From: Candidatus Limnocylindrales bacterium
GTDB taxonomy: Bacteria > Chloroflexota > Limnocylindria > Limnocylindrales > CSP1-4
NCBI GenBank assembly: GCA_025450915.1
Contig: JANWLH010000039.1
Coordinates: 12,719 to 76,718, forward strand
Direction: 5' to 3'
Length of the DNA: 64,000 nucleotides
Shown here piece after piece: positions 15,616-25,136 of the stretch (position 1 is the first letter of the stretch; every line of letters starts with the position of its first letter). The notes below the pieces were generated by a model. The model did no database searches. It had not been told where the DNA came from and saw nothing but the letters and a program-made list of their open reading frames with translations. Position numbers and translations under genes: made by a program.

Positions 15616-16100
15616 TGGAGATTCGACGGTTCGGGATCGGCCAGCGACGGCCCGACGGTCCCGCCGGAACGCACAACGTCGAGGCTGCGGTCATCGAATC
15701 AGGGCCGCGCGGCGTGGTCGCCGAGCTGGCCTTCGCGCGCCACGCGGCGATCGAGACGCACACCAATCCGAACACCGCCTGGTTCGTGGTCATCGAGGGC
15801 GGCGGCTTCGTGACAGTGGGTGCGGACCGGGCCCGGGTCTTCGCGGGCGAAGCCGTCCTGTGGCCGGCCGGGGTGCCCCACGGCGCATCGACCGAGCTGT
15901 CCGAGATGCGGGCGATCGTGGTCGAGTTCCCGGTCGCCGACCTTGCCCTGGGTCCCGGCGCGGCGATCCTGGATGCCGGCGTGCTGCCCTCGGCGCCCTC
16001 GGCTCGCTCGGAGGCCGCGAAGGTCGTTGCCCCGGCCGACGGGCACCTCGTTGATGAGCGGCCGGCGCCGTACGACCCCCGCCACGGCGAGCCGCGCTAG
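15616..16100 (+). CDS. Cupin-domain protein
   Basis: Cupin motifs ..AIETHTNPNTAWFVVIEGGG.. and ..GEAVLWPAGVPHGASTE... GTG start 6 nt after the upstream stop. Confidence 0.6.
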
Positions 16101-16170
16101 GCTGAACGGCCGCGTACGGGCTCGGGCTCCGTTGCGGCCCGACGCCCAGGAGCCGCCGATGCGGGACGTG

Positions 16171-16350
16171 CACCCAGTACAACAGAACCCCGTTTTCGAC
16201 CCGTTCCTTCGGCGGGGTGCCCTGCCCGCAGCATCGCATCCGGCGATTTCATGCCGCGCCACGCTCACGGCGGAATGATTCCTGCCGCCGAGGCGCGAGG
16301 CGACTGGGTCGAACCCCTGGAAATCGCCCGTTTGTTGTTCTGGGTACACG
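16171..16350. repeat. Imperfect long inverted repeat (arms ~16171–16203 and ~16305–16350) enclosing nested GC-rich stems; candidate structured element
   Basis: Arm 1 is CACCCAGTACAACAGAACCCCGTTTTCGACCC. The reverse complement of arm 2 is GTACCCAGAACAACAAACGGG...GGTTCGACCC, sharing ACCCAG, ACAACA, AAC and TTCGACCC blocks. Internal CTTCGGCGG / CCGCCGAGG pairing also present. Confidence 0.35.
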
Positions 16351-16612
16351 CATTGCCGTGATCGTGTTCGCCGCGGCCCGGGCATGGCCAGGGTCTGTCA
16401 GCCGTGGGGCCCCGGGAAGCGTGGGCACCGAGGGGATGGGATGGTGGCCGGTCGAGCGACGTGCGTCGCGACTCTCCTCGCCAACGTTGCCGGACCCCTC
16501 GACGACGAACAGACCACTCGCATGGCGGGCGGGCGCTCGTCCGCCGGAAGGCGCCAATCTCATCACCCGGCTGATGTCGCCGACGTTTGTGCCGGCCCAA
16601 GCTGGGCCGCAA

Positions 16613-16763
16613 TACCACGACTAACCTCAAGTCGACGGGTTGTGCGGGGCTCAGGCCCGGATCGGGACCAGGTGGCGCCGTCCTGGCCACTGGAATACCA
16701 CGACGATTCTTGGAACGAGGCGGAAAGGCGTTGGCAGCCGTCCGGCCAAGGTTAGTCGTGGTG
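16613..16763. repeat. MITE-like element, copy A (~151 bp) with perfect 13-bp terminal inverted repeats
   Basis: Left TIR ACCACGACTAACC at 16614–16626; right TIR GGTTAGTCGTGGT at 16750–16762. Internal TIR-like ACCACGACGATTC. Confidence 0.65.
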
Positions 16764-16804
16764 CGAGGCCAGGTCCAACGAGCGTCGCGTCTCGGACCCG
16801 GCGG

Positions 16805-16952
16805 TACCACGACTAACCTTATGCGGCGGGTTGAGCACGGCTCAGGACCCGAATCGGGACCCATGGGCCATCCTGGCCGCTGGAACACCACGACGATTCG
16901 TAGAACGAATCGTCGGGCGTCGCGAGCCGTCGGCCTAAGGTTAGTCGTGGTG
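16805..16952. repeat. MITE-like element, copy B (~148 bp), ~75–80% identical to copy A, same perfect TIRs
   Basis: Left TIR ACCACGACTAACC at 16806–16818; right TIR GGTTAGTCGTGGT at 16939–16951. Conserved cores GCTCAGGNCCGNATCGGGACC and TCCTGGCCNCTGGAANACCACGACGATTC. Internal hairpin ACGATTCG-TAGAA-CGAATCGT. Confidence 0.65.
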
Positions 16953-16986
16953 TCGGGGCGCCAGAGGGGTCGGGGCGCCAGAGGGG
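16952..16986. repeat. 17–18-bp direct repeat x2 (GTCGGGGCGCCAGAGGGG TCGGGGCGCCAGAGGGG)
   Basis: Direct reading, immediately 3' of MITE-like copy B. Confidence 0.8.
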
Positions 16987-17025
16987 CCGGGCCAGCGCCA
17001 GAATGGCGTCCGGAGCGCAGGACAG

Positions 17026-17699
17026 CTATGCCTCTACCGCCAGCTCTGCGACGAGCGCGCCGAGCTGGCCGAGGATCCGGGCGGTGGCGCCCCAGACGTG
17101 GAGGCCGTCGATCCGGTAGCCGCCGTAGCGCAACGGCCAGTCGCGAACCTGGCGCTCGACGATCTCGACCGGCGCGTCGGGCAGGAACGCGTCGAGGGGC
17201 GCCCAGATGATCCGGGCCACCTCCGACTCGAACGCCTGCAGCTCAGGCGAACGGCGGGCAATCCCGAGAACGGGCGTGATGCTGAAGCTGCTGACCGGAA
17301 TTCGAAGGGGATCGAGCCGGCCGATCACCTCGACCTCTGCTGCGGCCGGGTCCAGACCAACCTCCTCCTCCGCCTCGCGCAGGGCGGTCGCCTCGAGGTC
17401 GGCGTCCCCGGGCTCGACCTTCCCACCCGGGAACGAGACCTCGCCGCTGTGCATGCCCTCGTAGGTTGCCCGCTCGGTGAGGATGACGACTGCCGTGCCG
17501 TCAACGCTCGGGGCGACGAGCACGAGCACCGCGGCGGGCCGGTCGCCGGGCACAGCCTCGAGACGCAGCTCGCTCCGCGGTCGCCCGTCGGTGAAGACAG
17601 GCATCAGCACGACGGGGCCAGGGGGCAAGCGACCCCTGGCACCAACGGCCGTTCGATCCGGCAGCCGGGAGAGTCTCGCGGCCGCCTCGTCGAATTGCA

Positions 17700-17700
<1 letters not shown>
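17026..17700 (-). CDS. NUDIX hydrolase, CoA pyrophosphatase-like
   Basis: NUDIX box HSGEVSFPGGKVEPGDADLEATALREAEEEVGL. Start ATG overlaps the clpB stop (TGATG). Confidence 0.8.
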
Positions 17701-24886: not shown

Positions 24887-25136
24887 GGGTTCGAGAAGGC
24901 TCGGGTGGCCCCGGCGCTCATCGAGCGGTCCGTAGCCCCGATCCAGCGCCGATGCCGGGCGGGCCGAGCGGGGCCGTGGTGGGGCGGAGCGGGGTGCCCC
25001 GAATATCACGACGATCCTTGATCGGCGTGTTCCAGGTCCTGCGACTGCCCGAATCTGGCCTTGTCGAGGCGCTTGAGCCGCGCTTTGTCTGGTGGCGATG
25101 CAGGGGCCGCGGCGCAGGACCGCCCGCCGAGCCGCC

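Follow-up and report, generated by a model that had tools for sequence, protein, structure and literature searches.

Among the described systems closest to the elements studied here, the Correia (CREE/NEMIS) elements of Neisseria are present in hundreds of near-identical copies with a demonstrable TA duplication; in the REPIN/RAYT and BIME systems, each REP is a palindrome that acts as a single-strand hairpin; and in the IR/DR-type Tc1/mariner elements, Mu and Tn7, the ends carry binding sites within kilobase-long autonomous elements. The IESs of Paramecium have a size period of approximately 10 bp, interpreted by the authors as reflecting a DNA loop in a transpososome-like complex (PMC3464196). 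A dependence of function on helical repeat length has also been documented for the ends of IS1 and IS50, for repressor loops (lac, ara) and for the Hin invertasome (PMC3464196).

We identified two units in a stretch of Limnocylindrales DNA that belong to a small family of non-coding, double-stranded-DNA inverted-repeat elements in Limnocylindria. These elements are similar to Correia elements in being approximately 150 bp long, non-coding and intergenic, in having perfect terminal inverted repeats that start with TA, in containing an internal protein-binding feature (here putative) and in lying often at gene ends; transcripts across them would likewise form a long hairpin. In contrast, they share no sequence similarity with Correia elements, and differ in their few copies, unalignable interiors, third copy of the terminal box inside the element, lengths quantised in steps of 10.5 bp and resident copies apparently under purifying selection. 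With REPINs and BIMEs they share two conserved short inverted sequences around a less conserved spacer, vertical inheritance and persistence at orthologous sites, a location at the 3' ends of genes, also between convergent ones, and dependence on a possibly domesticated protein that acts in trans (here inferred). However, the boxes found here are not palindromes, and REPINs are shorter and far more numerous. The terminal 18-mers contain no internal stem beyond CTAA..TTAG, and only the internal box forms a small hairpin, so that we rejected a REP/REPIN assignment; to our knowledge, helical phasing of the double strand is not a described property of REPINs. The repetition of sites both terminally and internally, the asymmetry created by one additional site, and a possible TA target recall the Tc1/mariner, Mu and Tn7 ends, although no autonomous parent or transposase was found for the Limnocylindria family. 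Finally, Paramecium IESs are also short TA-bounded elements with conserved ends, freely drifting interiors and a size period of approximately 10 bp (PMC3464196). IESs are nonetheless single-copy, eukaryotic, mostly shorter than 150 bp and selected since their excision from genes is needed, whereas the present elements are bacterial and intergenic, with a third internal site and no known excision. The family is set apart by its three-box design, its 10.5-bp quantisation, and the apparent selection on geometry in its resident copies.

The window, meaning the whole 64-kb stretch of DNA that was analysed, has a G+C content of 70.6%. The units lie in a gap of approximately 925 nt, in the gene order purH (minus strand), a cupin gene (plus strand, ending at 16100), the gap, a NUDIX/CoA-pyrophosphatase gene (minus strand) and clpB (minus strand), and no gene was called in this gap in an assembly of the same species. 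Homologues of the NUDIX protein belong to Candidatus Limnocylindrales, in the phylum Chloroflexota. Both units are bounded by the ends TACCACGACTAACC and GGTTAGTCGTGGT. The 13-mer ACCACGACTAACC has exactly four exact matches in the window, on the plus strand at 16614 and 16806 and on the minus strand at 16750-16762 and 16939-16951, compared to 0.69 expected by chance, and none of 100 shuffles reached four; allowing one or two mismatches retrieved nothing further in the 64 kb. Unit coordinates (Table 1) comprise these 13-mers plus the flanking T and closing base.

Table 1. Coordinates of the two units, their boxes and associated features. Positions are those of the window unless a locus is named.
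Feature	Coordinates	Strand	Description
Unit 1	16613..16763	+	151 bp, short length class; A' to B' 83 nt, B' to end 68 nt
Box A' of unit 1	16613..16630	+	TACCACGACTAACCTCAA; direct, terminal
Box B' of unit 1	16696..16713	+	TACCACGACGATTCTTGG; direct, internal, A/T-rich bases on either side
Box C' of unit 1	16746..16763	-	CCAAGGTTAGTCGTGGTG as read on the plus strand; inverted, terminal
Inter-unit spacer	16764..16804	.	41 nt; no relation to either outer flank
Unit 2	16805..16952	+	148 bp, short length class; A' to B' 81 nt, B' to end 67 nt
Box A' of unit 2	16805..16822	+	TACCACGACTAACCTTAT
Box B' of unit 2	16886..16903	+	CACCACGACGATTCGTAG; overlaps a local hairpin-forming palindrome, 16891-16915
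Box C' of unit 2	16935..16952	-	CTAAGGTTAGTCGTGGTG as read on the plus strand
NUDIX/CoA pyrophosphatase gene	17026..17700	-	stop 73 nt from unit 2; synteny anchor for orthologous elements
Remnant of the C-terminus of 'gene2'	16477..16533	+	found by tblastn (58% over 19 aa; E 4e-4, small search space) and by synteny
Tandem-repeat sites	window 16949-16982; L138 5720-5825, 6050-6100; L139 5710-5765; L152 3790-3880
Elements at contig ends	L115 1608-1628; L133 2034-2054; L131 1-49; L114 1-146; L122 921-1098

A sequence-only reading of this region had described two units of approximately 150 bp, each beginning with a 13-bp end and closing with its exact reverse complement, and its account of their layout was largely confirmed by the four ACCACGACTAACC copies. 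The units are 79-80% identical (80% by BLAST), in keeping with the 75-80% claimed for their interiors; the spacer given as 41 bp measures 41 nt when the 18-mers are taken as its limits and 43 nt with the 13-mers; and the internal near-copy of the terminal repeat is real in both units. Of the two cores said to be shared, CCTGGCCNCTGGAANACCACGACGATTC is present in both units (16682-16709 and 16872-16899), whereas GCTCAGGNCCGNATCGGGACC is exact in unit 1 and requires a 1-nt indel in unit 2 (16840-16861). An alignment of 16600-16775 with 16792-16965, comprising the units and their flanks, has a mean column identity of 84%, and the similarity breaks off at the box edges. Unit 2 contains a perfect 11-bp palindrome at 16891-16915, CGACGATTCGT aga ACGAATCGTCG, which overlaps the internal box and has no equivalent in unit 1.

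No further full copy was found elsewhere in the 64-kb window, where we obtained weak matches only. A solo 18-mer, TATCACGACGATCCTTGA, lies in intergenic DNA at 25003-25020 and is like the internal box of unit 1 at 15 of 18 positions; no inverted partner occurs within approximately 200 nt, and it may be the final trace of a decayed element. A match to the core at 925-935 lies inside a long ORF and was dismissed as chance.

We identified at least 21 full elements with the same ends in the window's species (L145-L150), in MFD MAGs, in metagenome contigs and at syntenic loci, a small sample of which approximately 14 are independent. The diverged, dispersed family that had been suspected from the two units is thereby borne out. 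An exact 15-mer scan of 185,579 species representatives yielded mostly chance matches, and additionally six loci in the long-read MAG CAVSEN01 (MFD01872.bin.2.209) and one in another MAG, with the 18-mer in plus and then minus orientation at a distance of 145-190 nt. Seven further full elements came from a 17-mer scan of metagenomes, as did five that are truncated by the end of their contig; all are on high-G+C contigs. Searches of viral contigs, plasmids and phages found no relatives. There are at least seven copies in one long-read MAG with megabase-scale contigs, and the two window units together with an element downstream of a saccharopine dehydrogenase gene (the SDH locus) give at least three in the window's species. 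The interiors of paralogues are at background identity (57 ± 3%), with few clearly related pairs, namely units 1 and 2, and L113 and L128 (75-79%). The family is confined to Limnocylindria, within a single order, and our search of the literature for Limnocylindria repeats turned up nothing.

When all elements are read in a common orientation, each contains three copies of one 18-nt box: A' at the 5' end (direct), B' in the interior (direct) and C' at the 3' end (inverted). The box consists of the 11-nt core TACCACGACTA followed by nnCkTrG, and the core is almost invariant in all three positions, with B' sitting in an A/T-rich patch. Across the 21 elements, which range from 148 to 192 bp, the 18-bp ends are 89% Watson-Crick paired. 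One element, L064 (175 bp), has no recognisable B' box, and in L087, L113 and L122 the orientation of the internal box is inconsistent with that of the slightly asymmetric ends.

Some further ideas about the elements were rejected. A T-arm-like left flank of L113 proved not to be a tRNA, and a tRNA-His is nearby in L128 only; the neighbouring genes are unrelated housekeeping genes and not a recurrent family; a recombinase-type second half-site beside the terminal boxes showed weak similarity (6-7 of 11-12 positions); and mixed orientations within a CAVSEN contig gave no bias with the direction of replication. Several short-read metagenome contigs stop inside or a few bases from an element (Table 1), two of them exactly 3 nt beyond the 18-mer. 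These breaks may represent assemblies broken by the repeats, or population heterogeneity.

The key feature of the family, absent from the sequence-only reading, is that total lengths and box spacings are quantised in steps of 10.5 bp. The lengths fall into classes of 148, 149 and 151 bp; 159, 160, 160 and 160 bp; 169, 170, 170, 171, 171 and 171 bp; 180, 181, 181 and 181 bp; and 191, 191 and 192 bp, with the 175-bp L064 as the lone outlier. Over 20 elements (omitting L145, 169 bp), the total lengths gave a Rayleigh R of 0.83 with a peak at 10.5 bp, a value equalled in none of 20,000 draws from a uniform-length null in which the best period between 8 and 13 bp was taken each time; once relatives had been merged, leaving 14 elements, the observed statistic was matched in 8 of 20,000 draws. 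Both internal distances follow the same rule, each with R of approximately 0.93 at 10.5 bp: the A' to B' spacing is 61, 70-72, 81-83 or 92 nt, and the B' to end spacing is 67-68, 78, 99-101 or 109 nt, with one more instance of 109 in the truncated element L114. The two spacings vary independently and combine freely, which would imply at least six separate length changes, each of approximately a whole number of 10.5-bp steps.

A related periodicity is present in the interiors themselves, even though these do not align. A/T-rich positions recur at approximately 27, 38, 48.5 and 59 nt from each end, with a best period of 10.25-10.5 bp (approximately 10.3) in both arms that was attained in none of 2,000 shuffles; the signal persists when relatives are collapsed and the conserved subterminal GGGTT/AACCC is left out. 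Periodicities of this kind are a classical sign that proteins sit on one face of a short, stiff double helix and are connected through a loop; the loops and transposon ends introduced above are the experimental precedents. Our literature search found no report of helical length quantisation in a bacterial repeat family, and retrieved only ciliate IES/MITE work and a conference report.

The possibility raised in the sequence-only reading of a structured small RNA with pairing ends was not supported. No Rfam family matched the window at gathering score, and in permissive E-value mode the sole match to 16550-17020 was to VA RNA at E = 7.8. Whole units do fold well whichever strand is taken (z-scores of -2.4 to -7.4), but only the terminal stem accounts for this: single-sequence folds of both strands contain this trivial stem and nothing else, and the much stronger z-score of unit 2 is due to its 11-bp palindrome. 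Folded alone, the interiors are no more stable than dinucleotide shuffles (mean z of -0.26 for one strand and -0.33 for the other), and RNAalifold on six orthologues revealed no interior helix that was convincing for either strand. The terminal helix does not covary more than shuffles do (0.124 versus 0.116, with 119 of 500 shuffles as high); it pairs because both boxes are conserved and not because they covary. Mismatches compatible with G·U pairing are equally frequent on the two strands (12 versus 12), giving no strand-specific signal, and neither a promoter nor an intrinsic terminator was predicted. RNA-type signals are absent from these tests, save that one clade carries two adjacent compensatory pairs (ACC/GGT to TTC/GAA).

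A role in RNA might still be envisaged in read-through transcripts, where a 3'-UTR hairpin closed by the 18-bp terminal stem would stabilise the upstream mRNA or serve as an RNase III substrate, for which REP and Correia elements are the reported precedents. The strong terminal stem and whole-unit z-scores, the compensatory pairs in one clade and the position of elements just downstream of co-directional genes are consistent with such a hairpin. However, besides the null results for Rfam, interior stability, covariation, G·U balance, promoters and terminators, the sequence of the box itself is invariant, beyond what complementarity demands, and folding provides no cause for the 10.5-bp quantisation of three independent distances or for the A/T phasing. 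We thus give the RNA explanation a small chance of being right.

We investigated resident copies at syntenic loci, fetched via the NUDIX protein and sharing the gene order Lon-DnaJ-ClpB-NUDIX ... cupin-purH. In the window's species, the two units lie shortly after the NUDIX stop; a relative whose NUDIX protein is 88% identical also has two, with a 249-aa gene between them; and the CAVSEN MAG (80%) and another species (81%) have one element each. A fifth relative (86%, L141) retains a remnant only, and three more distant relatives have none. This remnant, at L141 4664-4727, is a 64-bp mini inverted repeat (TATCGCCGCGATTCTTGA ... TTGAGGAATCGTCGTGATA) in the place of the full element of its relatives, and resembles a B'-C' portion from which A'-B' has been lost; it is shorter than the short class by approximately a whole number of 10.5-bp steps. 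The element can thus decay. At the SDH locus, an element is present in the query genome and in the window's species, in six independent assemblies, and is missing from relatives at 90% and 85% identity. In some long-read MAGs, clpB and dnaJ are each split into two gene calls (L138 2242-5001, L139 1109-4990) and in others they are intact, which probably reflects frameshift errors of assembly and not biology.

Between orthologues at the NUDIX locus, the interiors are 49-80% identical, compared to 54-71% at the four-fold degenerate sites of the adjacent gene, whereas the boxes are 83-91% and their cores 88-94% identical. L137b, L138 and L139 have zero indels in segments that are otherwise randomised, so that near-neutral interiors retain a conserved length, and the same pattern of conserved boxes and drifting interior was seen at the SDH locus. 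The contrast between box and interior is not due to ascertainment, because these copies were located by synteny and not by box matching. Judged from these comparisons, the resident boxes and their exact spacing are apparently under purifying selection, with a near-neutral interior. Such selection would be unexpected for a purely selfish, inert MITE, and suggests a role at the level of the host or the locus.

Gene 3' ends are the usual location of the elements, in many cases between two convergent genes. Typically it is the A' side that follows the stop of a co-directional gene, at a distance of 32-120 nt (7 versus 0-1 among loci where just one side has a 3' end close by); this bias is only suggestive because gene calls were crude and the sample small. 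The looping model discussed below leaves the position after co-directional stops unexplained, and no model explains the bias fully.

These observations would suit elements that are not mobile at present and are kept by host selection as architectural or regulatory sites, at which a nucleoid-associated or a terminator/insulator-type chromosomal protein binds the three boxes and loops the DNA at gene 3' ends, where the loop could stop read-through or absorb supercoiling between convergent genes. Resident orthologues that keep boxes and exact spacing while the interior drifts, the placement past co-directional stops and between convergent genes, and the lack of a nearby transposase all favour such sites, and they would account for helical phasing and A/T periodicity equally well as the explanation that we prefer. 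Nevertheless, close relatives lack the element at these loci or have it in decayed form (the L141 remnant; L142-L144, L152 and L153), and it is thus dispensable; units that are nearly identical are found at unrelated loci, their homology stopping exactly at the boxes, which needs a process of copying and insertion; and the family is restricted to one order. We consider this architectural explanation unlikely, although it is the strongest competitor of the one that we prefer.

The interval between the NUDIX and cupin genes is itself variable (window 16100-17026; L137 5666-8221; L138 5690-6820; L139 5684-8508), with differing combinations of two unrelated genes, which encode a membrane protein of 249-259 aa and a protein of 200-210 aa without Pfam hits. 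The latter ('gene2') stops 79-113 nt upstream of the element in L137, L138 and L141. In most loci a gene is followed by an element; the window has lost both genes save for a 19-codon remnant of gene2, decayed and 80 nt upstream of unit 1. Short G+C-rich tandem repeats (units of 8-20 nt in 2-6 copies) fill the stretch that separates the element from the gene stop, or the site of a missing element, with a different repeat in each species (Table 1). These might be hotspots of replication slippage, or footprints.

An integron-like organisation, in which the element would be an attC site at the 3' end of each cassette, recombining in folded single-stranded form, would be consistent with these gene-plus-element modules (two in L137, one each in L138 and L139, and a decayed gene with two elements in the window), with the biased orientation relative to the upstream gene, and with the GTTAGTC / GACTAAC in the boxes, one mismatch from the attC core GTTRRRY / RYYYAAC. 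That mismatch in each core is also a departure from the consensus, and further attributes disagree: the length of 148-192 bp exceeds that of a typical attC, extrahelical bases cannot be accommodated in a perfect 18-bp duplex, a third box in the interior is foreign to attC sites, and helical phasing of the double strand is unexpected for a single-strand substrate. Most copies are singletons beside conserved housekeeping genes, the SDH-locus element came or went without a gene, and no integrase was found in any fetched locus. An attC identity is extremely improbable.

Several properties of the family are those of miniature inverted-repeat transposable elements, as the sequence-only reading had proposed: terminal inverted repeats surround a short non-coding sequence (148-192 bp, below the limit of approximately 300 bp for a MITE; no called gene), and the element has been duplicated as a discrete unit. 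The family is dispersed, with few pairs that are clearly copies of one another. Between L113 and L128, an identity of 79% extends exactly as far as the terminal repeats, and the flanks are unrelated. Homology running exactly from end to end between unrelated flanks is the behaviour of a mobile unit, and presence and absence at the NUDIX and SDH loci fits gain and loss. In other respects the family is not a typical MITE. Copies are few (at least seven in one MAG), and a low copy number with paralogue interiors at background identity is not the signature of a MITE burst; resident copies appear to be under purifying selection for their boxes and exact spacing; none of the fetched loci has a transposase, a recombinase or any other possible partner beside the element; and no longer element with the same ends, as a possible autonomous parent, was seen among the exact 15-mer matches in the 185,579 species representatives. 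Inspection of the flanks found no direct repeats, the sole candidate for a target-site duplication being the TA that starts and ends the inverted repeat, which is palindromic and cannot be told apart from it. An alignment of L118, L145 and L152 had no alignable flanks past the stop codon, and hence yielded no base-exact empty site.

Conserved inverted repeats around a short variable interior at several dispersed loci also recall invertons, in which a site-specific recombinase would flip the 110-155-bp interior, as in the Mpi-dependent invertible promoters of Bacteroides. The inconsistent internal-box orientation in L087, L113 and L122 and the metagenome contigs that break at an element would be consistent with flipping, and helical phasing matters for assembly of the Hin invertasome (PMC3464196). 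However, a single orientation of the interior was found in all duplicate assemblies (window/L136, L139/L140, L134/L116, L145-L150) and in the different species compared at the NUDIX locus. The boxes also lack the palindromic form of crossover sites, the neighbouring genes include no recombinase and the element contains no promoter-like site; moreover, most elements lie between gene 3' ends, where a flipping promoter would have no obvious target. An inverton is accordingly a very improbable explanation, with a slim chance at best.

With slightly better than even confidence, we favour a protein-looped, transposase-type, non-autonomous, MITE-like nucleoprotein element. Under this looping model, a trans-encoded, sequence-specific DNA-binding protein would occupy the 18-bp boxes and join the two ends, bending the intervening 110-155 bp into a tight loop or wrap. 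DNA this short is costly to twist, so that the complex would need boxes placed whole helical turns apart and A/T-rich, bendable positions facing alike. We infer such looping from the three-box anatomy, the phasing of length, spacings and A/T positions, and the conservation of boxes and geometry described above. The protein would most likely be a transposase or its domesticated descendant, which may mobilise the elements or have done so formerly. The family would have spread as a discrete MITE-like unit, and the pair in the window may have originated by local duplication, or by insertion of one unit beside another.

A more elaborate form of the looping model is that the elements and a candidate transposase-derived or architectural DNA binder constitute a domesticated system, in which a phased loop is selected at gene 3' ends, being useful as, for example, a polar roadblock or an insulator between convergent genes. 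We offer this tentatively, as possible but rather doubtful.

Helical-turn size classes, phased A/T positions and conserved spacing over a drifting interior constitute direct evidence, obtained from sequence only, for a DNA loop closed by protein. The 18-bp box, its three sites and the permissive lengths provide a handle for identifying the protein that would bind them in Limnocylindria, a clade that is widespread in soil and fresh water and lacks a cultured model. These repeats may break short-read assemblies of Limnocylindria genomes, and could be mis-annotated as small RNAs. The family additionally allows a test of whether short bacterial repeats are maintained by selection on loop geometry rather than on sequence. 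If the domesticated loop system is true, it would be a bacterial counterpart of the 'natural helical-twist experiment' of ciliate IESs, and a new sequence-specific chromosomal loop element.
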